A stretch of DNA of 62,290 nucleotides, counting the filler, from Hausera hauseri (lineage: Eukaryota), in assembly GCA_046269625.1 (NCBI GenBank). It is 9 parts of 9 records of this genome, joined end to end, with 100 filler letters (N's around TTAATTAATTAA, not from the genome) between each part and the next. Parts side by side here need not be neighbours in the genome. Positions count along the whole stretch, not along the records: positions 4,806 to 12,688 come from JBJURY010896507.1; 8 more parts are not named here. The stretch is one strand, 5' to 3'. The notes under the pieces are model-generated. The model was not told the DNA's origin. It did not search any database and was given only the letters and a program-made list of their open reading frames with translations. Of the stretch, positions 1,714-36,785 are shown piece after piece; position 1 is the stretch's first letter; the number at the start of each line of letters is the position of its first letter. The position numbers and the translations under genes were made by a program.

Positions 1714-3884
1714 TTATTTCAAATGCCAATGCCCATACGCCCAACTCTTATTTGGCTCCACCCACTTTCGCTTATCATCATTACATGACAAAGCAATTTT
1801 TGTTTTTGTTATAGTATACAGCTGGTGTTCAATCGATCGTATGGTCTTTTGAAACACAGCCATTGATTGTCCTCCTCCTCCTTGTCGTCCTCCGTTTTCT
1901 GCTGCTACTTCATAGATACGGCGATAATCACCGTGACTTATTTCCGTCTAGAATAGATGAACGCCTTTTGCGCGCATTTTCAGTCCAAAGTCCGTCAGAA
2001 AACTGTAGCACTTTGGGCGCAGGAATATCAATTCTCGGTACTGAACACCGCCTTCGCTTTCATTCTTGAAGCAGCCGATTTTGTTCGTGAAGGCGACACT
2101 ATACAGCGGATGATTCTGCGGGTAACTAGACGTGTCCAGTAGTCCACCTGCCATCATTTGCCTGAGCAATTGGTTGCGATTGACGTTTTCCAGCTCACGG
2201 AAAAGGCTGACTGTCACCGGCGACGATACTGATCTCACAGCCGTCGAACATTTCCCGGTAACGTGCCAAGTCGCGATACTGGAGCTCGCATTTTCGCAAC
2301 TTGCACAAGTCCAATACCACTTGTCTGATGTACCTTGGTCAGTCCAGTACGACTTCTTCCCTGTTTATCAGCACGGCGATCAATCCATCGGCAATGTGCA
2401 TTGACCGCCTGAACTTAGCCGTGTTGGTGTACGTAACCAGCGGCTTTTCGTTGTTACATAGGCTCACATTGAGTCGCTTTTTGAGATTCTCTACCGTTTT
2501 GCCTTAGAGAGAATTATTTTTCAAATTGTAGTAGTCATTTTCGAACTTTGTACAAACTGAGGCTCGTTTTTCTGAATTACCGTAAATGTATGCCTTGAAT
2601 ATCGGCGCCTGATTGAATTTGATTGCGCGATGTAGCTGTGTGACGCCTACACTGAGCTGCATGTAGAACTGTAGCAGACGCTAATGGACCACGTAATTCA
2701 GCTTCGATTCATGCTTCATCAGGAGTTTCTTCACCTTTGAGCCGCCAAACGGACATTGGCTGATCGGTACGACAGGCAATAGGACAAAAGCGTTATGCAA
2801 TTCATCCGTACCACGAGATCAACTTCCATCAGGTAGTCGAATGAACTGTTTTCTGCCGTGTCTGCTATATGTAAATTTTCCAATATTGCCTCGAGATCTT
2901 GCTTATCCGTTAACCATTCAAATGAACCGTACGACAAGGGTTGCAAAAGCGCCCAGCCATACAGGTTATTAATGTCAATGGACAGCAGTGATGTGGTGTT
3001 ATCATCACTGGTTACGTGGTGCTTGTTGACAAATGTCATGCCGCCACAAATACCAACATCAAACAGTCGGTACATTTCTGGGTCTTGCAACAGCTCAATG
3101 TCCCGGTCCAGTGATATCAGAGCCGACGCCAAACTCATTTCCCGGTACAGAGTAAAAGTTGAGCGGCTCCAGCCTATCTTCCGCCAACGTCCAGTCAGGT
3201 TCCGACTTCAACAGATTATGTCCACGTGAGGATTCTTGTAAATTTCCTCATCTTCCGGTATCTCTATTACTGAGTTGTACCAGAAAACGTTGATTGACAG
3301 TATCGGATTACGCTGCTCAAAAGCCGGAATGGTTTTGAATTTCATCGACATCCAGTTTTCATCAAAGTCCAATTCATAAAAATAGGGAATATATTGTTTT
3401 GAACAATTTGCACTATTTCTTGGCACTTTGTCATATTTTAATATGACTAAAATACTGTAATGAAAACAGCATTCGCCGCTATTATTTTCTACATTCACTA
3501 CAGTTTTAGAGTGCTTTAGGACTGCAGGTGTCGGTACGAATGATCGCCCTTGCAAGTAAATCATGTCACTCGACTTTGTAACGATAAAGCCGAGAGTGAC
3601 AATCTTTACAATTTGCCATCCACTACCCTTTTCCATGTAGTTGGCGATTTTCTCCTAGAGTTTTTACCAATCCCAGCGACAAAATCCTCGGTATATGGTA
3701 CGGCTCAATATGACAGGTACCATCGTTTCCTGTCGCCTTGCACGTTTTCGAATTCTGAAAGTGCATAATACTGCACTTTGAAGTTGTGTTGGAATTTGTC
3801 CACTTCAGATGCCAACCTGCTTCACACAATGGGTAGAACATGTCCCAACTGCGTTGTTGTTGTTGTTGTTGTTGTCGCTGACAT
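1714..3884 (-). pseudogene. Protein-primed family B DNA polymerase (Polinton/adintovirus pPolB), decayed and internally deleted
   Basis: N-terminal GSGW...SFVPTP...VVNVEN...CF...FEQRNPILSINVF; motif A DINNLYGWA..PL.YG.FEW; KIGCFKNES...FLRPKCYS...KMRAKGV; C-terminal IRSIEHQLYT...ALSCNDDKR...AYGHW. Stops and frameshifts present; 5' boundary approximate. Confidence 0.9.
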
Positions 3885-4805: not shown

Positions 4806-4819
4806 CAATATATAACATT

Positions 4820-4837
4820 TGGCGACCCTAGCAGGAC
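4820..4837 (+). promoter_or_regulatory. Primer binding site, probably tRNA-Arg
   Basis: TGGCGACCCTAGCAGGAC 2 nt after the LTR-terminal CA; reverse complement GTCCTGCTAGGGTCGCCA resembles a tRNA-Arg 3' end. Confidence 0.75.
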
Positions 4838-5010
4838 AGATTAGTGCCTCGCTAGACTTACTTCAGCTGAGAATTAAATAACTACATACCGTCGATCAGC
4901 GCCATTCACACCAAGTAATTTAATACAGTTTGAGATTTAAAATTCGGGTCATAAGTTGGGTGAGATTTAAATAATAAGATTGTCTGAGAACAATTATTGA
5001 TAGGTTTAAG

Positions 5011-6473
5011 GTGAACCTCGATTTAAAAGATAAGGAAAATTCGCCTATACGCCAGACGCGTAGAAATACATATAGAGATAGCAAAAAATTAAACAAACGC
5101 TCATTCTCTGAGACTAGAGTAAATTTATCTAATTCAGATTTAACTGCTGTTGAGAGAACAGATAAGTTTAAAATTCCTCTTGCAGAAACTAAAGTTAATA
5201 AAGCAAAATTTGAGATTAATAATATGGCAGCAGATAACCCACCAGTGGCGCAAAAACTGGACATCTTTACTTTTTATTCTCTAAACCTGCCAGCATATGA
5301 CGGTGATCCGAACGGACTAAATGAATTCTTGAGAACTTATAAATTGCATGCAGAAGGTGCTAGTCTTACTCCCGAAGTGATGATTAAACGATTATCGTTA
5401 TACTTGAAGAATTTAGCCGCCGATGCTTATAGCTAGCTCACTAATGATGAAAAGAAATCTTGGTCTTCCATGATAGGATCTTTTAACTGTAAATTATTGC
5501 CGACAGTAACGCCGCAACAAAAACTTATGGCATTTCAGAATAGAGTACAACAGAAGGGTGAATCAGAAACCCAGTTTGCATTCGCATTGAAGAAACTTGC
5601 TAATAGTTATGTGAGCACATTGAGGATAACTAACGAAGAAAAAGCTAAAACCGAAACTGAACGCGAACTTGCAGAATAGGCAAACCCGCCAGATTTAGAC
5701 GTCATGATGATGACGCAATAAATAAATGGTATTTGGTCCCGAGATCTAGTGAAACAGTTGATTTTGACCAGACCTGAGAATTTTGAAAGGACTTTGCAAT
5801 TGGCCCAAGATTTAGAAATGGAACTGGACAGATATGCCAGACATAACGATAGAAACGATAGAAATGATAGAAATAATGATCGAAATGATAGAAATCGGAA
5901 TGACAATCGTGGAAGAGATGATAGACGATTCAATATTAATAGGAATTATGGAAATAAAAATAATAATGACTACAGAAATAGCCGAAACAAAATTTACGGT
6001 AATGACCGAAATACAAATAAGTCGAATCTTAATACGGATAGAAAGGGAGGAAACTACAAAGATTTAACTACTCAAACCGTTATGATGGTGACCGAAATAA
6101 TGATAGTCGACGGAACGTAGAGAATACACAAGGTTCGCCGAACCAGTACAATAGAAGCATAAACAGGTCTAAGTCACCTGTGAATAAAGACGGGCGACAA
6201 AGAATCGGCAGAAATGGGAATTTAGTGTGTTTCACATGCGGTATAGAAGTACACATTGCACGGTCATGTTCAAACCAACGGAGCGTTTCGTTTACCGAAC
6301 CTAATAAAACTAGCATGATTAAAGTCAAAGAGAACTTAGAAGCGAAATTTGGTGATCTTGGAGATACAGGTACTATTATCAACGTACAGGATTTGCGGAA
6401 ATTTCTAGATGCTCAACCTGAAACTACTAATCCACAGATTTTGACGACCAAAAAGAGTATGGAGATAAACTAA
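5011..6473 (+). pseudogene. gag: Gag (retrotransposon capsid region, NDR-repeat linker, CCHC zinc knuckle)
   Basis: YDGDP..LNEFLRTY...IKRLSLYL; FQNRVQQKGESETQFAFALKKLA; RND repeats; CFTCGIEVHIARSC. In-frame stops and one frameshift. Confidence 0.85.
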
Positions 6474-6479
6474 GACTAT

Positions 6480-9400
6480 TAGAAGTGTATCATGGTTTAG
6501 CAGAACCAGAAACTGAATTTGAGTATGCGATAGCGTCAAAGCGAATTGATATGAAACGAAAAAAGAGTATTTCGACGAGTAATAAAACAGCCGATACAGC
6601 AGGAACTTCAAAAGAAGTCAACTTAGATGCAGAGCCCGAGTTCACGGTTGAAATGTAGACAAGACTACCGAAGACGATATATTTAAAAAAATTTATGGAG
6701 CTATTAATACTTAAAATTACGAAGAATAGAGGCCGCAGCCCCTTATTGAAAACTGGATGTAGAATTCGTTCACGATCATCAGTAACTAAGGGGAAACCAG
6801 TAGAAATGAAAAATAGGAATATCGCTATAGAGGGCGGTCTAGAGTCTAGCTCGAATACACCAGAGATTGGTCCACTCACACCTATCGAGGCAAAAGAACC
6901 GGCAGAATAAATAAATGAAATTAACTAGATTTGCTCACTTCCCACTAGTGAAGAAGAAACGGGGAGCATAAATGATTTCGATTCAAGAAAACGAAAAGTC
7001 CGACGTTCGTGGAAAAATGCCAAGGAATTAAAGAAAATTAGAATTAGATGTCACGATCCGAAAATATTGCAGCAGAACTTAGAGAGGTTTAAGCAAATTA
7101 ACAAACAAGTAGATATATCCCGTAAAGAGCAACAATTTGCTGAGAGGTTGTATAAAAGTTTAAAATTATGTACTGAAGGAAAGCTCGATGAAGCAATCGA
7201 CTTAGGACAACCGAAAGAAGTGCCACCTGAAACGTTGCTAAAATGGAAGCGTAAATTAAAAACATGGATTAAAAGTGGAGTCGAATTTTCGGAAGGATGG
7301 AGCAAAAACGAAGATAGTTTTGATGTAAAAGTCGCTAAAGCTCAGACGCTACTGTCTACCTTAAATGCAAAACCTTAAAATTCTTAAAAATCTTTAAGCA
7401 AAACCTTAGAAGTCCGTAATGTAAAGCATATGATGGATGAAATTCGCTGTGCAATGATTAATCGGCTAAGAGAAAATCCGATAAATATTCCTCCCTTAAT
7501 GGAGATGATAAAAATCGCCTTTGCGGTACCCAAGCAATATACGAACCTAGAAAATCGTATCAAAATGGAAAATGAAAACCGGTTACAAATTTGTGGTTTG
7601 AGAAACCGAATTATGTTTCTAAATAACGAAGAAACCAAATACGTAATAAAAGCTTGTAGCATAGAATTCGATGAATACAACGATGAGTTTAGTCATATCA
7701 GCCGGATTATAAATTTCATAAAAGGTCCATATGATGAATTAATGGATGTGTATAAGATGCTAGATAAGGCTATATTAGCAAAGCCAATAATAGATAATCA
7801 AGTACGGGAATGGTCCGAATTAGTAGTGAGACTAAGTAAATTAGTGGACGACCGTAGGAAAGAATTTCTAGAAAGGGAGCCTTCTATTAAAAAACAATTA
7901 GAAGAAAGTGCACGTAACTTATATACAATACAAGCGGAAATAGATATCAGGACTCAATTAGAAGAATTATGACAATTGAATTTTAGGAAGAAGCAAGAAG
8001 TAACGATATTTGAAGAGATATATAAAATGATCGAAGAAACAGACTTTACAGAAAAGCGGAATATGACTTGCAATTTTTACCCTAGATTAAGAAACGTCCG
8101 ATTAGAAGGAGTCCAACATTTAACAGCTAAATCTATCGACGAAATTTCCATACAAGATATCGAAACCTTAGATATTTGTCCAAAACATAGAACAGCTTTA
8201 GAGGAAACGATGCGACTAAAACATAAACCACAAGAATGTATAGTCGAAACAGATCAGAATTGTCATACCCAGTTGAAAAAAATAAGAAACGACCAACATC
8301 TTAGTTTTGAAGAAGCTAAGTTGGTAAAGAAATTGCTTGACGCGATAGATCCCGATTCAAGAATCATCAATGAGATGTACGAGTTAGCTTTTCTCTTATT
8401 AGAAATGGCAGAAATTAATGATGAGAAGATGAGGCAATTCATGCCTAAAATAAGACAGGTTGAAGAAACATGCACTAAAACTAAACAAAGAACAACCAGG
8501 TTAGACGAACTAATAAAAGAGCTCGAAATCTACCGGAACAAATATGCTTTCACAGAATCGGAAATAAAACGGAAGACAAAATTTGTACAAAGATGGCAAA
8601 GAAATGTAATTATTGAACTAATTGATTACCACCAAAAGGGATTCATCCATTCTACTGAATTAGGCGAACTACTGAAAATGATTCAATATGCCCGGAGAAA
8701 CGGAATAGGTCTCCGAACTATGCAGATAAAAGAAATACAACCGAGATTGTAAGACATTCGAGAGAATATGCAAAGGACGAATACAGCACCAGTGGACTAT
8801 AGACTTCCAGACGTTGGAAATGAACCGGAATGGGATGCGCACTTAGATGCAGTAACGGCCGAAAATTCTGTGACGCCAGTACAGCTTAACGAATGGAAGC
8901 GTATCCGCAGAACAGTAGATTCAATGTGGAGATACTACTGGATTCAGCGCTAACTGAAAAAGATTTACTTAAACTAATTAACGTAAACATTACTGAAAAT
9001 AAGTTAAGACAACTTATTCCGACTTTGACTAAATTATCTAGTGAGAATATAATTTATAGCACGGTGCCGAAACTTTTGATAAGGAAATACGCTAAAATCG
9101 TAAGGGCTAAACCTGAGGTAACGATGAAAGTGTGGGTATCATCCAAGTGGACGGACGAAAAAGAATCTGAGTTAACTACGTATTCCTATGTAAGGGGCGT
9201 AAGAGAATGGCTAATCAATAATGGTGGAACAAACGAGTTAAACTATAGATTCTATTTTAGAGGTAGAATACTAGACGATTTTGAACAGCTAATAGACGTC
9301 GGTATCATCCCCGAAGAAACAAATCGAATAGTAGCGATAGTAGCTAATGAACAGACGAAAAAAGAAGCCACGCGTAAGGCTAAAACAGAACAATGTGTAG

Positions 9401-10050
9401 GACAAATTATGGGAGTCAAAGATGCTGCAATGTATTTCGATTATTTACAAACACACGAAGATAAGGAACAATACGACAAGAATTTAGTGCCACTGAGCAT
9501 AATGATAACAACCGTTACGAAACAGAAACGTCCGGTAGGCCGTCCCAGAAAATTCGTGAAGATATTGACTATAATGGAGAACTGATTAGAGAATTGAGAC
9601 AGATGTCGATTCCTATTTTCAGCACAGACAATGAACAATTAATCGAACTAATGAAGAATTTCATTCGAATTGTAAATTATGCAAGCCTTTGAGGAGGCAT
9701 ATTGGACGATAAAGAGAAGGCGATATTTAATGCAGCTAGGATAATGAGAAGTTCACGTTTTAAGTTATCAGAGTAACTTAACCGATGAGTCGGAGATTGA
9801 AAAGATCGTGGTAGAAAATTCGATAGATTAAATAAGAAAAGTACTACTGTATCTAGCTATCAAGACAAACCCCAATCGAGAAAATGAATTTGACAGAGCT
9901 ACAAGCTTGGCATGAAGAGCGGCTAGGAAATTACCTGAAGAAGTAAACTGGCCAAAATTATTTGATACAGAAGATAAAAGGACTAGTAATAGTACCAGAC
10001 TCGAGGATATGTTACGTAATTTCACAACAACAGATAATAGTAACCGGAAA
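6480..10050 (+). pseudogene. Long accessory region between Gag and Env (coiled-coil segments, Cys/His cluster, ubiquitin-like domain about 9124-9342, AT-hook 9526-9552)
   Basis: ORF pieces at 6695, 7067, 7430, 7976 and 8768 share one frame, separated by stops; YRFYFRGRILDDFEQLIDVGI; KRPVGRPRK. Confidence 0.65.
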
Positions 10051-11870
10051 AACGAATCCGACTGGTTAATCAGCTTACTCACCTTGATGGTGCTAATAAA
10101 ACAGTTAGGTACGACTGCGATAAATTTAGACTGGGACAGAAGTATTCTCTAATGGATTTAGAGGCATGCTAAGATGCCTGACCGCATAAATTAGAAATGG
10201 GGAAGAAATATTACTTCCTATATCAACAACAAGAATTAATATCGTTGGACGGAATGGAATGTATGTTGAGACGATCTCGTAGCATTTTTCACTGTGAATT
10301 AGGGAACGGACGTTCTTTAATAATCAAACCAACAACTCCAATCCCAATGAATTTGGAACCCCAGTATTGTAAGCAAGCCAAGGAAACCGAAAGATTAAAA
10401 TGGGATGGTATGGAACTAGAGATGCAACCAGGAAATATAATTAGGGCATATAAAGTAGTGGTTGGAAGACTAGACATGAATAATGGACATTGTAACGGAG
10501 CAGAGTATGACACCAGAAAAGGATTAGAAGCAAACGTAGTGGTCGTAGATTTCTATGAATCGGAGATGCGAGTACAGAAAGTAATGTTCCATAGCGTCAT
10601 CAAATTATATACCGAAAATCAAAAATGCCATTTACAGGACGGAACCTGCGCCTTTAGAAGTTCGGTTATAATATGGGAACCCCGTTCTGGAAGAAACTAT
10701 AAGTTCATCAAAATTAAGGAATTGAAATTTAACGAAACTACAGGGAAACAATACGCGAATAAATCCGATACCAACTCAAGAACACGCGAGGACGTATCAG
10801 AACACCCTACACCTACGATACTAATCTCCGACCAGCATGGACTAAAATTTATTAAGAAGGAAATGATCTCCCGTTGAGATGTTGTGATGTTCGCCACTAA
10901 CTATAAAGCATTTTTCGTCGTAGAAACGAAAATAAATACGAACTTATAAGCTAGAAACGCAGGACATTCGGATTGAAGATTACTTGAAAAACCGGGGCGA
11001 TTATTTTTATTACAAAGGCCAAGTTGGAATAGCCGAACTATACCACAAAATGATAACGAATGATTGTAAACTGGATAAGGAAATCATGAGGACAAAGCTG
11101 GCTCTTATCTGTGCTAACCCTGAGTTATCATCCTCAATAATTCCTATGAGAGAAGTAATTTTCAGTCGAGTTACTGGAGAAATCTTATTGATTTACAAGT
11201 GTGAGAAACGGGATATACCAACTAACGTTGAAGAGAAACGATGTATACAATAACTTACCGTTATCTACCAGAGCACCCCAAGATTGGCCATGCCACTTAC
11301 CACAGTATTGCTAGATAACGCAACTCAGCCAACAATCCTTAAGGATTGTAAGACAAGTTTAGGAGAACAAATGTTCAGGCGTAGCAAAACAAATTAGGTT
11401 AGTTTACCTAATGGAGGTATTACTGCCGCTCCAAATAAATTAACGGGAACAAACCTCGCGAAAGGGATCACCGGCGACAAATTTTAGGATTCCTCATCTA
11501 AAGGAATATATAGACCTAAGGAAATTGAAGCTTTCATATATTTCTCACCTTTCCACGACAGCGAACACGAGTTAAATCGAGCTATGGCCTTCGTAGTGGA
11601 TGATTCTCGATATCAAGCTAAATGGGAATCTTTGCTTGGTGTAAACCATTACCAGCGAATAACCACAGAAATACTCGACAAAATTTGGGAAGATTTTTAA
11701 TTTTTGGACAAGCCGCATCCGGAATTTTAGCGATATATTTTCTAATAGAAATTGTTAAGGCCGTCATCCAAGCAGTAATAAATAGGTATGAAATATTTGC
11801 ATTGACCGGATTTTCATGTAAAATACTAACGGCAATCATAATGCCTTTTGGAAAGTTCTTGAGAGCATAT
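10051..11870 (+). pseudogene. env: Chuvirus-like (class III/gB-type) envelope glycoprotein with hydrophobic signal and C-terminal TM
   Basis: WLISLLTLMVLI then, across a frameshift, YDCDK...YSLMDLEAC; C.....S..HC; GHCNG..Y....G...NVVV; CHLQDGTC...IIW; GEILLIYKC...C..LTVIY; KGIY; TM FLIFGQAASGILAIYFLIEIVKAVI. Confidence 0.75.
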
Positions 11871-12688
11871 GAAAAGAATAGATGGAAATCGGACGTACAA
11901 CGTCATGTCGGTTATCACAATCGCAAACGAAAAGCAAAACCTATGTTCTTGTACAAGCGGAAATTCACAAAACCTAATACGCGAAAAAATAATTCGGATG
12001 ATGACGAGCCTAAGGGAAGAGAAGTACTGCCAAGAACAGAAAGACACAAGACGTATTACGTCATTAAAGCACTATTGCCTATGCTACCTCCTACTGCTCC
12101 AGTCTATGAAGACTGTGACAAACGATCATTGAGCTCATATCAGACAGAAATCTATAAAAGGACAATTAGTTTAGAAGACCCATACGAAGGAACAAAACGT
12201 TATGGAGTCCTACGGAAAGTAAGTTATCGGCAGCTCGTGGATGACCCCAGAATATTGTATTCCCCGAGAAAGCCTCAGAATATAGAGACTAGACCGCCTG
12301 TCTGGGGAAATCAAAGGTTACAAACCTTCCAGAACATAGAACCACAGACTAACAATCGAGAACCATTAATTAATACTCATGAAACGGAGGAATTGGACAT
12401 CGAAAACAATGAATTATATCCAAATGCAGAACTAAGACAACTGTCGGAAAACATAGTATCCTCCCCAGAGATCCGAATCAAAGGACATAAAATATCAGCG
12501 ACCAAACGCCCAAAAGCCGCATCAAACTGTTTTGGAACAAAAAGAGAAGGAAGACCCTTCGCCAAAATCATTATTGAAGACTGGGAAGTTTATGCATTAA
12601 TAGACACAGGTTTTGAGATGTCTTACATTGAAAATGATTCAATACCTCAAACGCTAAGAGGACAATTATACCCACCATCTACAAAGGA
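11622..12688 (+). CDS. Env TM and tail fused in frame to a retropepsin aspartic protease (truncated by contig end)
   Basis: One uninterrupted ORF runs from the TM helices to RPFAKIII...VYALIDTGFEMSYI (DTG at 12603-12611). Confidence 0.85.
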
Positions 12689-19891: not shown

Positions 19892-22068
19892 GTAAACTTA
19901 ATAATGTTACTATCATGGATGCTTACCCTTTACCTTTGATAAAAGACATCTTACATTCGTTGCATAAAGCTACAATCTACTCCACTATAGACCTAGTAAA
20001 TGCCTACCACCAAATACCAGTAGCGCCTGAAGACATCAAGAATCGGCGATAACACCATTTGGCCTCTTCGAATACGCCTTCATGTCGTTTGGCTTAAAGA
20101 ACGTAGCCCAAACTTTTCAACGGCATATTGATTCTATCCTTTCAGGCCTCCCATTCGCTTACCCATATATCGACGATATACTGGTAGCATTATCTTCACC
20201 TAAGCAACACGCTGAACACCTCAAACTTGTTTTTCAACGCCTGCACAACAACAACTTACAGGTTAACTTCGCAAAATGCACATTCTTTCAAAAGAAAGTC
20301 AATTTCCTAAGCCACATCATCACGCCTGATGGTCACAGTCCACAGCCTGATAGAATTCACCAATTACGAAATATCGAACTGCCAAAAACTACAACTGATA
20401 AGCGCAGCTTTCTCGGTACTTTGCATTTCGTTCATAAGTATGTGCCACACTGCAGCCATTTAACTTCTCCTTTCGTTCAACTAAAAGCAGGGCCAAAGAA
20501 GAAACCTTTATATTGGACGCCAGAACTTTTAAATCTGTTTGATGAGCTCCGCAAAAATCTTAAAACCATTGAAATCTTGGATTATCCAAAACCTAATGCC
20601 GATCTCATCCTGACAACCGACGCATCAACCACAGTTGTCGGAGCGGTTCTCCATCAATTATCTCAAGGAATAAATGAACCACTAGAATTCTTTTCACGTG
20701 AGCTCCAGCCACAAGAATGCCGTTATTCCACATTGGATAGGGAACTCCTGGCCATCGTTTTAGTTCTTAAACATTTTTCACATTTACTTATCGCCTGGTC
20801 TTTCACCATTCAAACAGACCACAAGCCCTCGTTCACGTAATGAATATGAAGCACCATCACTTCGACAAAAACGTCATATTTCGTACTTGTCAACGTTCAA
20901 CTTTAAAATCTGCCACATTTCTGGCACAGATAATTTAATAGCGGATTTTTTGTCACGATCGGTTAGTGCAATTAGCGTCATGCCTATTTTTACTAAAGAA
21001 CAATTGGTTCAGAATCCTCCTTCTACTGAAATACTTAAACAATATAAATCTGTCCAAATCATTGATGGCGTAGCCATGGACACGTCGACACCTGGGCACC
21101 ATTTGACAATTTTGGCACCTTCTCTTCAACAAACAGCATTTAACCATATTCATTCGTTGCATCACCCAGATTCGAAGGCTACATTCCGCCTACTCAAACG
21201 TCACGTCACATGGCCATCAATGAGATCTGACGTACAGGGTTGGGTTAGGCAATATGTGGCTTACCAAAAATTCAAAGTAGCTAAGCATCTTAAGCCACCA
21301 TTATTCCATTTCCCATGTACATCCCGTTTCGAATCAGTTCACATAGATATTGTTGGTCCATTACCTTCTGATAATGGCCACCAGTTCATCTTAACAATGA
21401 TGGACCGCGCATCTCGTTGGCCAGAGGCTGTTTCCTTGCGCTCCATCAACGCTGACTCCATCGCCGATGCATTCATAAGGGTTTGGATTTGTCGGTTCGG
21501 TTCACCACGCTATATTACCACAGATCAAGGCCCCCAGTTCGAATCGAACCTATTCAAATCCTTAGTTAATCGACTGGGCATAAACCATATTCATACTACT
21601 CCATACCATTCCCAATCGAACGGCTTATTGGAGCGATTTCACCGAACTCTTAAAATCTCCCTGAAAATTCTAGCCGAAACACATACAAACTGGACTACTA
21701 TCCTTCCATTCGTATTACTTGGGTGGCGCAACATATCATTTACCACCACCGGTTGCGCACCCGCTGAAGCACTCTTCAGCACCACAATTCGTGCACTTTT
21801 TGAACTGACCGATTTAGACAACACACCGACTGACGAAACAATTAGGTCCGCACAAGATCATTTCATCCGGCTAAGTCGAGACTCTTTCTGTAAAATAATA
21901 CACGGCGACAAAACATATTTACCTGACTCCCTATTTAATGCAAAGTTTGTATGGTTGAAAAATCCGTCACCATCTGGATTCTCAATATTACTTCACACAC
22001 AATTTCAATACTCAAAAACGGCAAAAAAACGTGTACATAACGAACGTAAAACCTGCGTTCTTCGTTAA
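19892..22068 (+). pseudogene. pol: Ty3/Gypsy Pol: RT, RNase H, integrase (CsRn1-like), frameshifted
   Basis: DAYPLP, AYHQIP, MSFGLKN, YIDD, TTDAS, DRELLAI, TDHKP, HIDIVGPLP, TDQGPQFES, NGLLERFHRTLK. Confidence 0.95.
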
Positions 22069-22916: not shown

Positions 22917-23359
22917 TGTAAATCGAACAAAAGTTCCCAAAAATATAAAATCACATCTGGGAAAAATAAAAAGTTTTTTAACGAAATTTGAAATTAATAA
23001 CCTTAAAGTTTAAATTTTCTAACATGGAAAATTACAAATTTTACGGATTCATTAATAGAAAAATTTTCTAATAACAAAATCTAAAATCTAAATCACGGGT
23101 TCGCCTAACATAAGAACCAAAAATATATTCAAATATAGCCAAAGCAAAAGTAAACAAAAAAAACGGATTACGAGTGCTGAATTGACCAGCACTTGTTAAC
23201 AATCAAGATCTGTGGATTTAATCTATTTGTTTAAATCCACAGTAAAAGATTGAACAGTTACTTTGAAAAAAAAAACGAAAAGTCAGTCGAAGATTTTTCC
23301 AGAAAAGAAAAAGGAAACTTTCAAGAAAAGTTGAACGTTTCAAAAAGGGTACGGCCACA

Positions 23360-24469
23360 GCCCCTAGTAAATTTACCGGGACAAACCTAATCAAAAGATT
23401 ATCGGAAGATAAATTCGAAGATACAGCTAATAAAGGAATTTATAGGCCAAAGGACATAGAAACTTTTAGGCAATTTTTAGCATTTCTGCGACAGAAAACT
23501 TATGAACTGAATCGGGCCATGTCAGTGGTCATGGATGACACCCGCTTTCAAGCAAAATGGGAATCGTTACTCGGCGCTAATTACTATCAGAGAGTAACTT
23601 CTAAAATATTGTATAAGATTTGGGGAAGATTTATGATTTTCGGACAAGCTGCATCTAAATTCCTAGCCATCTACTTTTTAGTTCAGCTGATTAAAGCCGT
23701 AATCCAAGCCGTTATAAACGAATATGAAATATTCACATTAACAGGAATTTCCTGTAAAATTTTTACTGCAATCATCATGCATTTTGGAAAAATACTTAAG
23801 GCCTACAAAGAAAATCGATAAAAAAATGATGTAGAACGCCACGTCGGGTACTATAATCGCAAACGATGAGGGAGGCCCTCAATTTTATATAGATGTAAAA
23901 ACAAGAAAACAATAATAAGAAAGGATGATTCAGATGATGACGAGCCTAGGGGAGAAGTGAGTTCTAGAATGAAAAAGCATAAGACGTACTCAGTGATCAA
24001 TGCGCCACTGCCTATCATGCCACCAATCGCATCAATATATGAAGACTGTGACCGTAGATCGGTCATATCATGTAAGTCCGAAATCTACCAAAAAAGGAAA
24101 CAATATAGAGTATTACAGAAAATGAATGTTATCAACCAAGGACAAACAGAAAACTACCACGGAATATTGTACTCGAAAACGATACCGCGTCACATAGAAT
24201 CAAAATCAACGATCTGGGAGAACCAGAAACTGTGTTCGATCTCGGGTTCACTACCTCGGGGACCGCTCATTGGCAGTCGCGCCAATGAGGTGGCGGATAT
24301 TAATTTATACCCGAGCGGAGAATTAAGACAATTAAGGCAAGATATTCTTTCATCGCCAGAGATAACAATAAATGGACACAGAGTCTCTACTATAAAACAG
24401 TCGAAGATAGCGTCAAATTGCTTCGGAACAGTAGTAGAAGGAAGACCGTTCGCTAAAATACATATCAAA
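23360..24469 (+). mobile_element. Second, diverged copy of the env-tail-protease region of the 4806-12688 element
   Basis: KGIYRPKDIE, FMIFGQAAS..LAIYFL, DDDEPRG, YEDCD.RS, LYP..ELRQL, SNCFGT..EGRPFAKI all collinear; TM part and protease-proximal part share one frame. Confidence 0.9.
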
Positions 24470-25410: not shown

Positions 25411-26340
25411 CACAATTCCCCTGTTTTAAAATGAATTAATGAGTCAATGGAAATTGTTATTTCACTACATTAAAGAAATGAGGTTTTTGGTATTTTACAT
25501 TTCTGCTATAATCAACAAAGAATGCAAGCAAATATGAATTCTATAGAATACACTAAACGTTAATAGTGAGAAAACACTTTCATTTACTCGCTGGGCTGTG
25601 GGCACTCGTCCAGCTTTGTTTGTCTGGTGTTTATATTGGCTTAAATTAAAGTTGCTGTAACTTTGAGTTATCAACTTGTGTAAAATTTTGCATCAGTGCT
25701 GAAAAAGTTCATTTATTTTTCCATGCACACGTTACACGACATAATGAGCTTGACATCTTTTCTTTGTGGCCTGTATCTTCTTGTTGCTGTAATTATAATA
25801 TCTCTCTGTCTCTCTCTCCTCTGCATTCGGACAGGTCCACCCTGTGATGTGCGTGTTCCAATGTACTAGGCAGGTCACTGATCTTCCCTTTATGGGTCTG
25901 GTCTAATGCGTTGCACAGTGGTTTAGTGTGCCTGGGAGTGCTTGTTACTCAGGCATTCTCAGTTTATGGCAACACAGTGATCGGTCGTGTTATCATTTGC
26001 TGTGCGTCTTTTGGATTATTTCTAAATTATTTCTGAATTACCAGTGGATTAATATGAACGATTCACACACCGCCATGAGCGGACAACGAAGTGGTTTGTG
26101 GTGAAATGTTTTAAAATTCGACTTAAAGCTTATATATTGAGTTTTTGTGACATTTATGAACAATGACGGTAAGAATTACCCATTTCAGATAATTTACCAG
26201 TGTTCGATAGGTTTCACCTGGCGTGGTCTTACGTAATCTTACGGCAACGCCTCAGTCTGATTTTGCGTAATTTTACGTGTGGTTTGTCGAGCTATCCGGC
26301 TGATTACAAATGAATGTCGCGCTGAGGTAATATGTGAACA

Positions 26341-28614
26341 ATGGAAAATGCAGAGAGAGGCGTACTACTGGCTACATCTTCCAAGCCAACGACAAGGCGA
26401 ACAACCAGCAAAGCGTATGATTTGAACAAAGAGAGGGCTGTTCGAAGAAAACTCACCACGTGGAATACACCACCCAACGTTACGATAAAACATACAAATA
26501 AAGGACAATGTTGTACCATCACATTTCACAATACACAACACTATGAACTGTTCCGACATCTAGCCATCGAACACTACCAAAACTATAATATTGACTCGAG
26601 AACCGATAAACAGAACGCCCATGTTGAAGACAAAATAACCACGGCTTCTGTTACTATACATCTATATCATACAAAAAATAAGATACTAACACAAGGCACT
26701 GCCGAGTATCTCAGAATCTGGCTGGAGAACGAATTCCAGAATCTTCAAGCATCAGCTCTAGGCCAGACCACAGCAATGTTTATATATGATCCAGCATCCC
26801 CAACAAACACACTGAATTTCCCAAATACATCGGCTCCACTAGCGATCATGGACTGTAGCATTGCGCCAAACAAGCTGGCCATTGAAGATGGGAATGTCCC
26901 TCACAACCCTACGCCATCCACTGACGCTACCACTAACCATCTGTCTGGCGAAGATACATGTACAATTGTTATCCCATCTAAGGACGGCGTCACTAGAAGC
27001 ACCACCTGCGTTGAGACACAAGCTCATACACCACAAACATCCCAAATCCAGCTAATAGAGATTGAAAATCCCACAGTAGCAGACGTTGCATCAAGTCATG
27101 AGGTGATGGGAAATCTCAACGAACCTAATGTTCCAATAAAGCTGACTTGTTGTGAGGAGCAAATAACGAACCTTCGCAGCTGTATAAGCAACATGGTGGA
27201 CAAGTTAACTGCAGATCTAAAATCAGAACTGACTGCTATCAAAACAGAAATGCACTTCCTTCGAGAAGAAAACATGAAACTTATATCTCATATTAAACAA
27301 CTCGAAAAGAAGGTAGAAAACAAGAAAGAAGGCAGTCTTGATGACAACATGCCCACAACTACTGACAGCCACCCACAAAACAACTCTGCTTTATCCACTG
27401 AGGCAGCCTCGACTTGCAGCAATGAATATTTATCACACTCTGAGACTGCAGCAAATACAACTACAACCACCATGCTAGCGAAAGAAGCGCCAACAAAAAA
27501 TAAAACCTTTCCAATAGAGGTCAAAATTACGAACCGTCAACAAGAGACAGAGAAGAAACTGCCGCATAAAATTACAGATTCGCAAACCTCACGTGGCACT
27601 CCACAGCCAAGTCTCAATCAAAGTGAGTACTCTGATAATGACAACCAATGGCAAGTAAAACAACGGCGACATCGACACCTGCCACAGCGACACGTTCAAA
27701 ACGACGCCACCAGCGTTATAATTGGCGACTCTTTGTTAAACGGCATTCATGCCGACAAAATGTCCATTAGCCCAGACGAGGTGGTCGCAGTACTTGTACT
27801 GCCAGGTGCTGGGGTGGAACGACTGACTTACGAAATGAGTCGCCTTAAAACCAATGGGAGTGTTAACAAGACGACAATCCACGTTGGTATTAATGACTGT
27901 TCAAATGGCCGCGTCTTACACGAGAATGATCTTCATAAAATGATCATTACGGCTAAAAAAGTATTCCCAAGCAGCCAAATCTATATGTCCTCTATTATTC
28001 CCCCCAGCCAAGGCAGCCTTCGTAGAATAGTGGACAAGACCAACAACGTGATCAATGCGTTCTGTAACAAATACGCCCTTGGTTTTATCAATAATACACC
28101 ATTCTTCACATCGGGCTCGGGGGCACCAAAAAAGGCCCTATACAGAGACGCGATCCACACATCCAAACTAGGAACAAGCTATCTGGCGAAAAATATAAAA
28201 TTTCCTGAAAGGACAAGTCATGAACGCCGAATGCCGCAGCGTGAATACAAAGCTGTTGACCCAGCCAATAGGCAACAACAGAAAATCTCGCCACTACTGC
28301 CCGCACCTAAAACAACGGGCGAAACTCAACGTTTGCCATATCAGCAAAGTCTGCCATATAATGAAGCATTTCCAGCGCTTCCCACAAGGCAAGATCCTCC
28401 AGCCAGCTGGGCAGACCTGACCATGGCTAATCCAGGCACCAGTAATTCCCCAGTCACAAGAAACACAGCAGGGAAACCGGCCTTAGCCAATCACTTTTCT
28501 GATGGCTCAGAACGATCTGTTCACAGCCCATCGATAGTTCATTATCTTATGCAGTACAACCCTGTAATCTTACGACAAGCTTTGCAGATGTCGTTACAGG
28601 GCATCACTCAGTGA
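26341..28614 (+). CDS. CR1/L2-group LINE ORF1 with coiled coil and SGNH/GDSL esterase domain
   Basis: 757-aa open ORF; IIGDSL, PGAG, HVGIND and DAIH esterase blocks; coiled coil LKSELTAIKTEMHFLREENMKL. Confidence 0.9.
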   Translation: MENAERGVLLATSSKPTTRRTTSKAYDLNKERAVRRKLTTWNTPPNVTIKHTNKGQCCTITFHNTQHYELFRHLAIEHYQNYNIDSRTDKQNAHVEDKITTASVTIHLYHTKNKILTQGTAEYLRIWLENEFQNLQASALGQTTAMFIYDPASPTNTLNFPNTSAPLAIMDCSIAPNKLAIEDGNVPHNPTPSTDATTNHLSGEDTCTIVIPSKDGVTRSTTCVETQAHTPQTSQIQLIEIENPTVADVASSHEVMGNLNEPNVPIKLTCCEEQITNLRSCISNMVDKLTADLKSELTAIKTEMHFLREENMKLISHIKQLEKKVENKKEGSLDDNMPTTTDSHPQNNSALSTEAASTCSNEYLSHSETAANTTTTTMLAKEAPTKNKTFPIEVKITNRQQETEKKLPHKITDSQTSRGTPQPSLNQSEYSDNDNQWQVKQRRHRHLPQRHVQNDATSVIIGDSLLNGIHADKMSISPDEVVAVLVLPGAGVERLTYEMSRLKTNGSVNKTTIHVGINDCSNGRVLHENDLHKMIITAKKVFPSSQIYMSSIIPPSQGSLRRIVDKTNNVINAFCNKYALGFINNTPFFTSGSGAPKKALYRDAIHTSKLGTSYLAKNIKFPERTSHERRMPQREYKAVDPANRQQQKISPLLPAPKTTGETQRLPYQQSLPYNEAFPALPTRQDPPASWADLTMANPGTSNSPVTRNTAGKPALANHFSDGSERSVHSPSIVHYLMQYNPVILRQALQMSLQGITQ

Positions 28615-29217
28615 TAGTATCTGCATTAAACTAATATGTGCTCATTTAATTTGATCTATGGAATGTTGTCTACATACGCTTTCTCTCGGCAACGCATTGA
28701 TTTTTATAACTAACAAGTATTTTGTTTAAGAAAACCTGTTTTGACACTCAACACTATAGAGAAGTGTTAGTTTGCTGTTCTATTCACGAACACAAAGAAC
28801 TTTTGACAATTTGCACTAATTAGTGCCTTTTAACATTTTTTTTTTCTGTTCTGCTACACATTATAGAGAAACTATTGACTGTTTTATTTTTCTTCTGTCC
28901 TAAACGGAAGGCACAACTTTTATCTTGGTTGTTTCACTTTGTTCTCTGTACAGGTGCAGATCACGGTCACTGACATTTGAAATCATAATCATCAGTTAGC
29001 TTGACGTTTATGGACGTTTGAGTTCGTCTTTGCGTATTTGACTGTGTTGAAAATATTGATGCATTCCTGTCTGTTTTTAACTTGCCACATTTTATAGAGT
29101 GCGTCACTACAACAATTACTGTGTAATTTCTGTTCATCCGTTATTGATAATTTTGACTTTTTCTTGTTATACATTGTATTTCATTCGCATTTTGCCTTTT
29201 CTTAAAAACGATACTTA

Positions 29218-31368
29218 ATGACTCAACCAATCAAAACCGAGTATCCAAATCAACATGGTCTCAGGATTGGACATCTTAACATTTGTCATCTTTTTAACAT
29301 CGGTAAACTGACCGAACTAAACTCTCTCTTACACAACAACAACAATAATTTCCACATTTTTGGTCTAACAGAAACAAGACTGAATCAACATATTTTGGAT
29401 TCAGAGCTCCAGATTACTAACTACAATATTCATCGAAAAGATCCGACAATTAAATTACAGACTGGGGTGGCAGTATATGTACATACAAGTCTCAAAGTAA
29501 TACGTCGACTAGACCTTGAATGTCCTGAAGTCGAGTGTATGTGGTTGGAAGTTTGTCTTCCACACACATCTCCTCTCTTGATATGCATTCTGTACCGGAA
29601 TCCCGAGGCCAGAGTAAGATGGTTTGATCATTTTACAGACATGATGGATGTTGTTTTTAATACCTCTCTTGAAGTAATAATCTTAGGAGACTTTAACATT
29701 GACGCCACGAAACAGAATGCAAACTGGGAAAATCTCTACTCCCTGTTTAACTTACAACAGATGATATCACTACCGACCCGAGTCACGGACAAGTCGTCCA
29801 CATGCATAGATCATATCTATGTTAGCAACACTGCCCGAATTCTAGAAGTGTGCGTCCCTGTCTGCGGTCTTAGTGATCACTATCCGATCTGCTGCACGTG
29901 GACTAAGAAGGGTGTTCGAATCCCCAAATTACGCCACCATATTGTTCATAATCGTTCATTCAAAAATTTTAATGAATCGGTTTTTCTGGCAGACCTATTG
30001 GCGGCACCCTTCCATAATGTGTACGGGTCATCCACTGCCAGCCAAGCCTTGGAAACGTGGCTAAAAACCTTCATAACGGTCTTGGACTGCCATGCTCCCC
30101 TGCGTGCAAAACGTGTGCAATCTAAAACTATACCACCTTGGATAACCTCGGAATACTTAGCCCTGAGGCGCCAAAGAGACTATTTTAAAAAAATAGGGGA
30201 CCACGCAAACTACAAAAAATACAGGAACCTATCGCAATATGTACTGAGAAAATCTAAAAAAGATCACTTTACAGCGATAGTAGAAAATGGTAAAAACTCT
30301 TCAAAAATATGGGATGCAATAAACAAACTTACAAACACAAACCAAAGCAACCAATACCACTCCAGTAATATCTCTGCCGATAACTTTCGTCACTTCTTTT
30401 CCTCAAACACAAAAGCCGCAGAAACAAACTGTCCTCCTTCTGATTACAATGATCTTTCTAAATTTATTCAGTCTAAACTGAATGGCACTGATCTTCCTGA
30501 CCTACCTTTTCTTTCTGCTACAGAAGTAGTCTCCTTAATCAGAAGCCTGCCTCGCAAGAAATCTTGTGGTATAGATGGAATTTCACCACGTATCCTGCAT
30601 TTAGCAGCCCCTGTGGTAGCTGAATCTCTCACATACATATATAACTTATGTATTGCTCAAAAGACTTTCCCGGACCACATGAAAGCAGGGATCGTGATTC
30701 CAGTCCCCAAAAAAGGCAACCCTGATCTTGTAGAAAACTATAGACCGATTTCGTTACTTTCTGCAATCTCCAAGCCTCTCGAGCGACATATCTATAATCA
30801 TATGCAAATTTCTATTAATAAATTTAATCTCTTACATGAGAATCAATCGGGCTTTAGGCGTAACCACTCCTGTCAGTCTCTACTAACAAAACTCACCGAG
30901 ATATGGCACTCAAACATAAACTGTAATAAAATCAATGGTGCCCTGTTGATAGATTTATGCAAAGCCTTTGACAGAATAGACCACCGTATACTTTTACATA
31001 AACTAAAATTGTATAAGTTTCATTCGAACGTCATCTCAATGGTTCAGTCCTTTCTTGAAAATCAAACACAACGTGTTCTCCATAATAATACATTATCCCA
31101 GCCCTATACTGTATCGGTTGGGGTTCCACAGGGCTCAATAATGGGCCCTCTACTTTTTAATATATATGTCAACGATCTTCTGTTAACACTCCCACATGAT
31201 GAAAGTCTCATGTTTGCCGATGATACAACTCTGACAGTAGCTAGCACAGACATGCACTCTGTAGAATCCCGACTACAGCACCATTTAAATGTACTACATC
31301 GGTGGTGCCTAGCCAATAAAATGTCCATTAATATTGCCAAGACGAAGTCGTTAATAGTATCCACAAGA
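29218..31368 (+). CDS. CR1/L2-group LINE ORF2 (APE endonuclease plus reverse transcriptase), cut by contig end
   Basis: LTETRL, LGDFN, IDHI, SDH; NYRPISLL, QSGFR, KAFD, GVPQGS..GPLLF, FADD; no stops. Confidence 0.95.
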
Positions 31369-32025: not shown

Positions 32026-32129
32026 TCTAGAAAACCTTAATGATTATGAAAAACCTCGTGTTGATTGCCCCAAAATTGTGAAAACCGTAGAGACAATACA
32101 TTCCGTTCAAAATCCGACGAAATACGATT

Positions 32130-32748
32130 CGGTCAAAAGACAACCATTGTCACGATCAGTCTTGTCCAGTTCATGAGAAATCCGCTACCTTATCTCATGG
32201 TCGGCATGGATGGTGGCGGTCTCGTCCGTTTCCAAATTGACCTATTGAGATGGACACACCAAAAGCTGGATGCCGTACTGACGGAACAACGACGAGTCAC
32301 CATCGGTGCTGGCCCGTACATGCGATTGTTATTGTTGACATCACTCAATCAATCACACGAATTGCGTGTATTTGACTGTTTCAATCATCTGAGTATCATC
32401 CATTATAGCGACGGACGACTGTTATTTAGCAGTACTAATTTGAAAAACGAGGTATCGTCAATGCGTCCATTGAACAGCAGTGTTTACAGAAACTATCTCG
32501 TACTCGTCAGCGAGCCAAACGTCATATTCGGTAGTATCGATAAAATAGAGAAATTGCACGTGCACAGTGTCCATCTCGTCGAGAGTCCACGACGTATGGC
32601 AATTCTGAAGGGAACCGACACAATCGGTTTAGTCACAGTCCGATTTGATACATTCCACGATGGTTCATTTCGTCCGGTTCGTTCATCAGTCTTAGCGGAT
32701 GAGAAATTGTCGAGGAGTGCCAGTCCGAGTCCGGATTACGTGAAATAA
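32130..32748 (+). pseudogene. DDB1: DDB1-like beta-propeller fragment
   Basis: YLMVGMDGGGL...RRVTIG...LLFSSTNLK..V..M.PLNS..Y...L......FGSIDKIEKLHVHSVHLVESPRR parallels DDB1 (KVTLGTQP...LVFSNVNLK...[23 protein letters not shown]); both ends are missing. Confidence 0.8.
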
Positions 32749-35830: not shown

Positions 35831-36304
35831 ATGTATATTTAGTCTGTCCCATTCTCAGTCATGACATTGATGTCCTCAGAGTGCATTTCTGCCGTTGCCT
35901 TCAAAACAGTTACGCAGGACTTCTTCAGCTGCCTGTGACCATCTTCTCACAGTTCTCATCACTACAGGTTGTTCCAAACAAGAAGTTCATAGTCCAACCT
36001 TTGGAACACAAGATTGTGATCTTATTTTCAATGATGTGGTTTTGCTGCATAAATGTATGCATCATTTTAATACCTTTATGTAACCCCCTTTAAAAGAATA
36101 AATTAGAATGACTGTAACAAAGCTGTTCTAACACATTGCTACCTTGAGTGGCTCAATACTAGAACTTAGCATACCTTGAGTGGCCATTCTATATGTTTTT
36201 ATTTATTCCAAAGTATAGAGTTTATTGTGCAGTTAACCATGGTGGCTGTCCACATTTTGAACCTGAAACTGTTACTGGTACCAAAAATGTAATATAAACT
36301 AATT

Positions 36305-36594
36305 AGTGTGTATGTATTACTCCACTCACTACTAAAAACCTGACAAATGTGTATGTATTACCCCACACAGTACAAAAAATCTGACAAGTGTGTATGTATT
36401 ACCTCACTCACTACTAAAAACCTGACAAGTGTTTATGTATTACTCCACTCAGTACTAAAAACCTGACAAGTGTGTATGTTTTACTCCACTCTATACTAAA
36501 AACCTGACAAGTGTGTATGTATTACCCCACTCAGTACGAAAAACCTGACAAGTGTGTATTTGTTACCCCACTCAGTACTAAAAACCTGACAAGT
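36305..36594 (+). repeat. Minisatellite, about 41-bp unit, about 7 copies
   Basis: Tandem AAGTGTGTATGTATTACyCCACTCAGTACTAAAAACCTGAC. Confidence 0.92.
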
Positions 36595-36785
36595 CCCCAA
36601 GAGGCAGGTTCTTGTCAAGTTAGGGAACTCTACTTTGTCTTATTGTAAATTCAAAGTGCCCTCTTTGTTCCCTGCCCCTCTAGCATGCTACATGATTTTT
36701 TGCAGAACTGTATTACCTTCAGAAAGGGTGGTTCCCAGAAAGCATGGCCTTGTCTTGAGTCCCGACTAGGGGACACAAACAAGGC

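Follow-up and report, generated by a model that had tools for sequence, protein, structure and literature searches.

The contig at positions 4806-12688 of our window (the whole 62,290-nucleotide stretch of Hausera hauseri DNA analysed here) raises two questions: whether an LTR retroelement here carries its envelope glycoprotein inside the polyprotein, between Gag and protease, and whether such an arrangement is new. The contig is likely to hold one copy, decayed and truncated, of an LTR retroelement that exists in many copies, probably Ty3/gypsy and of the Burro-like GAG-ENV-POL kind. The element's gB-like env is in frame with the protease, and its ancestor probably made Gag, spacer, Env and Pol as a single polyprotein, which is predicted to cross the ER membrane twice. 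The copy reads, in order, primer-binding site (PBS), Gag with a CCHC knuckle, a 3.8-kb coding spacer, a signal-like stretch, glycoprotein, transmembrane (TM) region and protease (Table 1). Profile and homology evidence places env between gag and pol, and the Gag-accessory-Env-Protease order described in an earlier note on this DNA is present, as judged from a PF24664 glycoprotein, a Gag match to the metagenomic relative L001 and the protease DTG.

Table 1 Features of the element, with positions in the window
Feature	Position	Strand	Basis or remark
Probable 3' end of 5' LTR	4806..4819	+	Sequence: ...CA plus 2 nt at contig start
tRNA primer-binding-like site	4820..4836	+	TGG start, after ...CA end
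Gag capsid region and Asn/Arg-rich linker	4978..6039	+	3 in-frame stops; L001 Gag match; stop depletion
CCHC zinc knuckle, one	6228..6269	+	Frame differs from capsid part
Long helical/charged spacer	6476..8950	+	7 stops in 824 codons; coding by stop depletion
Helical bundle (8929-9117) and ubiquitin-like domain (9118-9357), without di-Gly	8929..9357	+	P0006 match; PDB profile ranks; AF2 of L001 homologue
Internal signal-like hydrophobic stretch	10063..10098	+	Sequence; equivalent stretch in relatives
gB-like (class III) glycoprotein ectodomain	10110..11693	+	PF24664; family HMM; PDB gB matches
Transmembrane helix (11694-11780) and second, probably amphipathic segment (11793-11862)	11694..11862	+	Hydrophobicity; second copy
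In-frame cytosolic linker, Env tail to protease	11863..12550	+	pN/pS between two copies
N-terminal half of retroviral-type aspartic protease, DTG at 12603	12552..12688	+	Cut by contig end

The contig holds only 14 nt upstream of the PBS-like site, so the LTR itself is not visible. The complement of this site matches the 3' end of a tRNA that has C61 and G73. A pattern derived from this site and a second one at 52774 occurred twice in the whole window, each time upstream of a family Gag. The Gag capsid region had no Pfam match; it was stop-depleted (0 of 300 shuffles as low) and aligned with L001 Gag at 32% over 108 aa (E = 1e-12). The knuckle fell below the Pfam cut-off (E = 0.038). A PBS followed by Gag with CCHC, a Ty3/gypsy (Metaviridae) feature, is present in this copy as first read, with the LTR outside the contig.

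The spacer (6270-10062) is mostly coding by stop depletion over about 3.8 kb, which bears out the accessory coding region of about 3.5 kb noted before. Besides the 824 codons in Table 1, a run of 231 codons had no stop (0 of 300 shuffles as low for either), and at 9586-10100 no single frame was depleted (101 of 300). Pfam and NCBIfam gave no meaningful match to a recognised domain in 6476-8950. A second match to the relative P0002, at 8030-8492, had a z of 6.3 by shuffling, yet a BLASTP E of 0.059.

By sequence comparison, the spacer carries a conserved module of a helical bundle and a ubiquitin-like domain. The module matched the relative P0006 at 25% over 128 aa (E = 2e-7), and in the PDB its profiles gave ubiquitin/ISG15 the top rank. 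One such profile (A4) had four rows, two of them chosen by eye; a BLAST-defined two-row control profile again placed ubiquitin first, weakly (single-domain E 0.03-0.16). As single sequences, the window and L001 modules were below the Pfam ubiquitin cut-off (E = 0.16 and 0.018-0.024, respectively). For the homologue in L001, AF2 gave a model (pLDDT 75) with four helices followed by a beta-grasp pattern; one of five AF2 models exceeded pLDDT 56, and the single-sequence model of 8890-9582 (pLDDT 34.5) was uninformative. In an Atlas search, ubiquitin-family clusters came up at 0.86-0.88, which is no more than a lead. The helical bundle is perhaps TFIIS-N-terminal-like, which is a guess. One module copy is found in this element and in P0002, and two in L001 and P0006. 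Lacking a di-Gly, the ubiquitin-like domain would be an interaction domain rather than a conjugated tag.

The spacer was also searched for MATH, BIR, ankyrin and BCL2-like domains. None was found in this copy at Pfam E<=0.1 or, ahead of Env, at E<=1, and a three-sequence Bcl-2-like profile found nothing in the spacer; decay may hide such domains. A Bcl-2-like domain is present in the relative P0008, and on L001 the profile was borderline (7 of 300 shuffles). As these domains were not found, we call the element Burro-like and do not file it as Burro.

The glycoprotein passed the cut-off of PF24664 (Pfam Monjiviricetes_fusion) in each of three pieces, which lie in collinear order (E = 3.5e-8, 2e-15 and 1e-10), and the family HMM matched 10110-11693 with E = 2e-46 and 3e-40. 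All 28 PDB matches of the family Env profile were herpes gB, all weak (E 0.06-2.4), and the single-sequence search with L001 Env had no fusion protein among its matches. The ectodomain holds 13 Cys and 3 N-glycosylation sequons and is broken by stops and frame changes near 10105, 10935 and 11690. These sequence matches support a class III/gB-like, chuvirus-type glycoprotein, the resemblance originally drawn from the Cys pattern.

The signal-like stretch is present ahead of the ectodomain, and the continuity with the upstream frame that had been claimed for it held over a short distance only. Its frame is open for only 50 codons upstream, to a stop at 9913, with a Met at 10009, 18 codons ahead of the stretch; the stretch and the YDC start of the ectodomain (10110) lie in different frames. 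In all eight relatives that include the Env start, a hydrophobic stretch precedes A-[YF]-D-C, and with cleavage set two residues before this motif, small residues occupy -1 and -3 in 8/8 (by eye), two of these having an N-terminal signal. Where TM helices had been proposed, one was retained: the Env tail is probably one TM and a weaker second segment. Both segments score alike in this copy on a hydrophobicity scale, and the second is far less hydrophobic than the first in 5/5 relatives with an unbroken tail. The TM region is 77% identical to that of a second copy of the family.

From the TM region to the protease DTG, a single frame (11690-12688) has 0 stops in 332 codons. The second copy, 68% identical and saturated at synonymous sites, retains the Env-linker-protease frame, and between the two copies the linker had pN 0.26 against pS 0.83 over 218 codons, with a net length difference of 45 nt; the frame is under purifying selection. 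These data uphold the in-frame fusion of Env to protease, and the ORF assigned to 11622-12688 does join the two in a shared frame, apart from its first 20 or so codons, which are not in the Env frame. The protease was below cut-off in Pfam RVP (E = 0.015) and aligned with that of L001 at 34% over 47 aa (E = 0.94). Because the contig stops 85 nt past the DTG, it includes neither RT nor integrase, and the lineage of this copy is taken from relatives. An RT-IN at 19894-22068 of the window belongs to a different gypsy element, at 31-35% to the relatives' RT, and is not the pol of this one.

Gag-to-Env continuity is not readable in this copy, which contains in-frame stops and about eight frame changes, the majority of these changes falling between Gag and the start of Env; since stops and frame changes occur all along the copy, Gag and Env included, the pattern is decay-like. 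A programmed frameshift or splice is indistinguishable from decay here. L001 has a single intact ORF of 3703 aa (Gag-spacer-Env-PR-RT-RH-IN), collinear with this copy for Gag, the spacer module, Env and the protease; among PDB entries, Ty3 is the nearest to the L001 RT (E = 3e-89). P0002 continues as one ORF from the CCHC knuckle through env, and both collinear relatives have the PR-RT-RH-IN order with a gypsy-type RT. L001, P0002 and P0006 are unbroken from spacer through signal, and 4/4 matches in a search of representatives hold the Env TM and then the protease in one protein. The single Gag-X-Env-Pol polyprotein of the earlier note is therefore borne out as one ORF in the intact relatives L001 and P0002 and is broken between Gag and Env in this copy; for the family's own ancestor, we infer both this continuity and the ER threading. 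Protein, viral, prokaryote and metagenome scans yielded no close intact relative of the family: the window's Env pieces had homologues in 0/1433 and 0/220 candidates among longer proteins, and locus scans gave 0/4 and 0/168 viral contigs, 0/111 prokaryote genomes and 1/108 in metagenomes (L001).

The same gene order could instead yield Gag-spacer and Env-Pol as separate products, with translation of Env-Pol beginning at the Met that precedes the signal stretch, on an RNA that is spliced or subgenomic, or with a programmed frameshift leading into Env-Pol. A single polyprotein would yield its parts in equimolar amounts, whereas retroelements generally require Gag in excess; this counts against one polyprotein, and separate products would solve this Gag:Pol ratio problem. 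They would also suit the Met at 10009 with the stop at 9913, and two of six Env relatives, P0010 and P0011, each of which is a stand-alone protein that begins with a signal of its own; these are 23-26% to L001 Env, and the Env of our copy is equally distant at 26-27%. In its accessible text, the survey of Chary and Hayashi (PMC13524379) permitted inter-ORF gaps, and the word 'polyprotein' appears in neither the main text nor the seven text supplements. However, the breaks within Gag and Env look like decay, three relatives are unbroken from spacer through signal, and Burro is described as one ORF (PMC6431247, accessible text), which makes separate products unlikely. Somewhat less likely again is a glycoprotein that now acts as membrane anchor or as a scaffold for assembly, cell entry having been lost, in an element that spreads within cells. 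The element is known here from sequence alone, and the accessible text of the eLife paper by Chary and Hayashi takes copy number to show expansion and nothing further, both of which would suit such a role; however, the entire ectodomain is kept with its conserved Cys (11 invariant in alignment A9) across relatives of only 23-38% identity, which a mere anchor would not need. That env is a nested insertion, or a neighbour by chance, in this copy alone is very improbable: the element has no internal repeat of at least 40 nt, its sole exact 16-mer repeat lies at 8673 and 12629, the in-frame linker is under purifying selection, relatives have the same order, and 30/30 bins of the element are covered by 22,227 contigs of one sequencing run, possibly the window's own source and not independent.

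For the single polyprotein that we prefer, Gag and spacer would remain cytosolic, and the internal hydrophobic stretch would serve as a signal anchor that signal peptidase cleaves, so that Gag-spacer would stay attached to the membrane. The ectodomain, assigned to its family from sequence, is predicted to fold in the lumen as a glycosylated class III trimer capable of fusion. A single TM would bring the chain back to the cytosol, so PR-RT-RH-IN would begin tethered to the Env tail, from which the element's protease, observed in the same frame, would later release them. Capsid, fusogen and enzymes would thereby be coupled at one budding membrane. More tentatively, at a little short of even confidence, we propose a double-threaded ER polyprotein in which the internal signal peptide anchors Gag, one TM ties Pol to the fusogen tail and the repeatable helical-bundle and ubiquitin-like module is a conserved core part; in intact relatives, a second type I protein downstream of integrase would take the chain into the membrane again, so that the retroelement polyprotein would be multi-pass, as in flaviviruses. 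The accessible literature on Burro and GAG-ENV-POL elements yielded no description of this double-threaded topology.

The Gag-Env-Pol architecture itself is not new. In the accessible text of Arkhipova and Yushenova 2019 (PMC6431247), Burro is the first case of an in-frame env between gag and pol, and that of Chary and Hayashi 2026 (PMC13524379) lists GAG-ENV-POL gB-type elements in Platyhelminthes, Nematoda and Bryozoa. The layout, which the earlier note had raised as a possible undescribed infectious Metaviridae architecture, was thus already published for Burro and in three phyla. As described there (PMC6431247), Burro/GYPSM1, giant gypsy-like LTR retrotransposons of planarians, share with our element a Gag with CCHC, a long accessory region with a ubiquitin/SUMO-like domain, an env matching mononegavirus fusion glycoproteins in frame between gag and protease, and high copy number, with decayed copies in Dugesia japonica. 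Both the env in frame with pol and the ubiquitin-like spacer domain are found in our copy. Burro has two or three CCHC knuckles, whereas our copy has one; its spacer carries Ubl, MATH, BIR, ankyrin and BCL2 domains, the last four undetected in ours; and it is giant (over 30 kb), whereas our contig is 7.9 kb, the likeness being by description, not sequence comparison.

The GAG-ENV-POL HSV/gB-type errantiviruses share the gene order and the gB-type env, with ectodomains flanked by two TM segments, and six Schmidtea Env domain I-II rows show, by eye only, the Cys and motif pattern of P0002, L001 and our copy (PMC13524379, accessible text). That set comprises intact elements whose RTs were placed in a phylogeny, whereas our copy is decayed and without RT; its missing intact ORFs concern the copy, not the family. 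The words 'ubiquitin' and 'accessory' occur 0 times in the main text of that paper, and 'ubiquitin' 0 times in the supplements. As described in partial form, the hosts of nematode endogenous retroviruses (NERVs) are nematodes, and we liken these to our element by description, not sequence. NERVs reportedly have a continuous gag-env-pro-pol ORF. They are Metavirus elements that, in the accessible account, also captured an RNA-virus glycoprotein before pol (Sacco et al. 2022, PMID 35550022). The relatives of our element have a Ty3-like RT. Certain mosquito elements, by contrast, are reported to carry env at the 3' end of a Bel/Pao backbone. These chuvirus-glycoprotein Bel/Pao elements share the glycoprotein class, as far as the accessible description goes (Dezordi 2020). 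As gene order, our locus is one more decayed member of a published class; the compact, intact P0002 (2627 aa) and L001 are simpler subjects than the 4,900-aa Burro or this decayed copy for studying threading, processing, Gag excess and partners of the ubiquitin-like module.

The window consists of ten contigs with 100-nt N spacers between them, and contigs lying side by side need not be genomic neighbours. The element fills the contig at 4806-12688 entirely and has a strong purine skew on its + strand. The gene order claimed for it in the earlier note, from a PBS-like site to a protease, was borne out.

Features of the retroelement filling contig 4806-12688
Feature	Position or extent	Remark
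PBS-like site	4820-4836	after ...CA end
Gag capsid region	between PBS-like site and CCHC knuckle	32% to Gag of L001
CCHC knuckle, one	6228-6269	
Spacer	~3.8 kb	between CCHC knuckle and hydrophobic stretch
Hydrophobic signal-like stretch	10063-10098	
Glycoprotein, then TM region	3' of hydrophobic stretch	
Protease DTG	12603	85 nt short of contig end

In six of the seven segments tested, one frame had fewer stops than any of 300 shuffles, while segment 9586-10100 was not depleted in this way (101 of 300 shuffles as low). Three-frame translation revealed a decayed copy, in which the frame changes about eight times and in-frame stops occur. The signal-like stretch had been described as continuous with the upstream frame. 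That frame is open upstream for 50 codons only, and the stretch and the ectodomain start lie in different frames, so "continuous" was overstated for this copy. The feature is real and the first reading mostly correct. The suggestion of an undescribed architecture fails, since two papers already report GAG-ENV-POL gB-type elements (PMC13524379) and Burro, giant gypsy-like elements of planarians (PMC6431247).

The proposed in-frame fusion of Env to protease was confirmed. The 332 codons between 11690 and the end of the contig are free of stops. A second copy lies at 23267-24469 (+), with 68% DNA identity and a net length difference of 45 nt. It takes in the C-terminal part of Env, the TM, the linker and the start of the protease, and as far as the first strand of the protease it holds the same frame, broken by two stops but by no frame change. 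All four matches in a search of 1.84 billion proteins carried an Env TM and then a protease within one protein. Between the two copies, whose synonymous sites are saturated, pN was 0.13 and pS 0.75 in the TM region, and 0.26 and 0.83 over the 218 codons of the linker. Moreover, 22,227 contigs of one run, which may be the window's source, covered 30 of 30 bins of the element, and 10,151 of them were under 90% alike, indicating that the entire structure is that of a large family with diverged members. A nested env insertion was rejected, given this coverage, the frame kept under selection in the second copy and the same order in relatives.

Among 108 candidates, the single positive was L001, a 16.6-kb metagenome contig. 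Its one 3703-aa ORF encodes Gag, two CCHC knuckles, spacer, signal, Env, TM, two proteases, RT (closest solved structure, Ty3), RNase H, integrase and one more membrane protein. Gag, spacer module, Env and protease lie in the same order in the window element as in L001, at identities of 32%, 24%, 26-27% and 34% (E 0.94 for the protease). A relative protein, P0002 (2627 aa), runs from CCHC through integrase. On the other side, two of the six Env relatives compared stand alone with an N-terminal signal, and they are as far from L001 as the window Env. Gag-to-Env continuity is thus likely in the window element's family. P0002 (HBK71150.1) is labelled a Flavobacteriaceae hypothetical protein although it is an intact Gag-Env-Pol retroelement polyprotein, and it probably comes from eukaryotic DNA that was binned with bacterial sequence. 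The aspartic protease domains of L001 (5974-6800) are in tandem, as they are in the relative P0006. The same ORF of L001 goes on past integrase (9994-11208), and there, as in the C-termini of P0002 and P0006, lie another signal-like stretch, an ectodomain of 270 aa, a TM and a tail. This part had no Pfam match, and its other matches were weak, to designed Ig-like proteins (E 0.12-0.18). Downstream ORFs of L001 (11375-13473) encode a coiled protein and, by a match below cut-off (E 0.001), an RNase T-like exonuclease.

The likeness of the glycoprotein to chuvirus-type class III proteins was upheld. Three Env pieces each matched PF24664 Monjiviricetes_fusion above cut-off, collinear with the profile (58-210, 299-545 and 540-614 of 653). 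A family profile built from six natural relatives gave matches of E 2e-46, 3e-40 and 4e-14 there. Against the PDB it returned 28 sequences up to E 10, every one herpesvirus gB, weakly (E 0.06-2.4); a single-sequence Env search of the PDB found no fusion protein. Together with the gB-like models published for such elements (PMC13524379), these profiles make the window Env a predicted class III member.

Within the spacer, 8965-9351 aligned with P0006 (25%, E 2e-7) and also with L001. A four-row profile of this module, two rows of which were chosen by eye, matched ubiquitin and ISG15 in register, and each of the best 60 of its 433 matches was a ubiquitin-like protein, with single-domain E from 2e-5 to 7e-4. 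With a BLAST-defined two-row control profile, ubiquitin was still top, weakly. The module profile also found P0002 (E 7e-5) and a second P0006 copy (E 5e-14), both outside the training set. AF2 predicted four helices and a beta-grasp pattern for the L001 module (five models, pLDDT 75 for the best and 53-56 for the rest). No module copy checked had a di-Gly end, and domain scans recognised no domain in the remaining 800 spacer residues. An AT-hook-like motif lies 3' of the ubiquitin-like domain at 9526-9552 (+) (Pfam E 0.31). Just 5' of the Env signal, the relative protein P0008 carries a Bcl-2-like domain (residues 9-80, Pfam E 0.001; best 60 of 85 PDB matches all Bcl-xL/Bcl-2), as does the N-terminus of the relative P0009. 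This feature is reported for Burro (PMC6431247); the domain was not detected in the window spacer.

The sequences show the order of the genes, the family to which Env belongs, the frame shared by Env, linker and protease together with the selection on it, and a single ORF in relatives. Small residues at -1 and -3 in eight of eight relatives (by eye), in two of which the stretch is a true N-terminal signal, suggest that the internal hydrophobic stretch acts as a signal anchor and is then cut by signal peptidase. One TM would return the chain across the membrane, as the second hydrophobic segment is far less hydrophobic than the first in five of five unbroken relatives, though not in the window copy. 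Gag would remain attached to the membrane, with Pol tethered to the tail of Env until the protease frees it.

Other elements were also observed. A related decayed element lies at 49445-52774 (-). Its PBS-like site is at 52774 and its ubiquitin-like domain at 51061-51273; its Gag and CCHC match those of L001, and no Env was recognised in it. In another decayed element, at 57447-59990 (-), Gag and two CCHC-like knuckles precede a short coiled region, which is followed by part of a gB-like Env (E 2e-23 to P0002); the order is Gag then Env, and the spacer is much shorter. Ordinary gypsy pieces of another lineage lie at 19894-22068 (+) (RT-RNase H-integrase) and 34144-35562 (+) (protease-RT). A LINE-like element spans 26338-31368 (+), with a GDSL esterase-like match in ORF1 and endonuclease-RT in ORF2 (by eye). 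Intronless host-gene-like fragments sit beside LTR elements at 32065-32748 (+), a DDB1/RSE1-type propeller (E 1e-15), and at 56984-57541 (-), which we take to be CWC22-like. Fragments at 2731-3654 (-) resemble Polinton-type DNA polymerase (by eye), and tandem arrays occupy 36255-36635 (41-nt units), 43034-43476 (70 nt) and 46948-49325 (about 354 nt).

According to PMC13524379, GAG-ENV-POL gB-type elements are known in Nematoda, Bryozoa and Platyhelminthes, and the window Env resembles, by eye, those of its Schmidtea elements, a likeness that suggests a flatworm host. With gene order already published, novelty would lie in the membrane topology and processing of such polyproteins, for which the literature searched, including the available parts of PMC6431247 and PMC13524379, yielded no treatment. 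Burro has MATH, BIR, ankyrin and BCL2 domains (PMC6431247), whereas none was detected in the window element, and the 7.9-kb contig ends before RT; we therefore keep the two apart. The window element works like Burro, as described in PMC6431247, and adds a decayed member to the published architecture.
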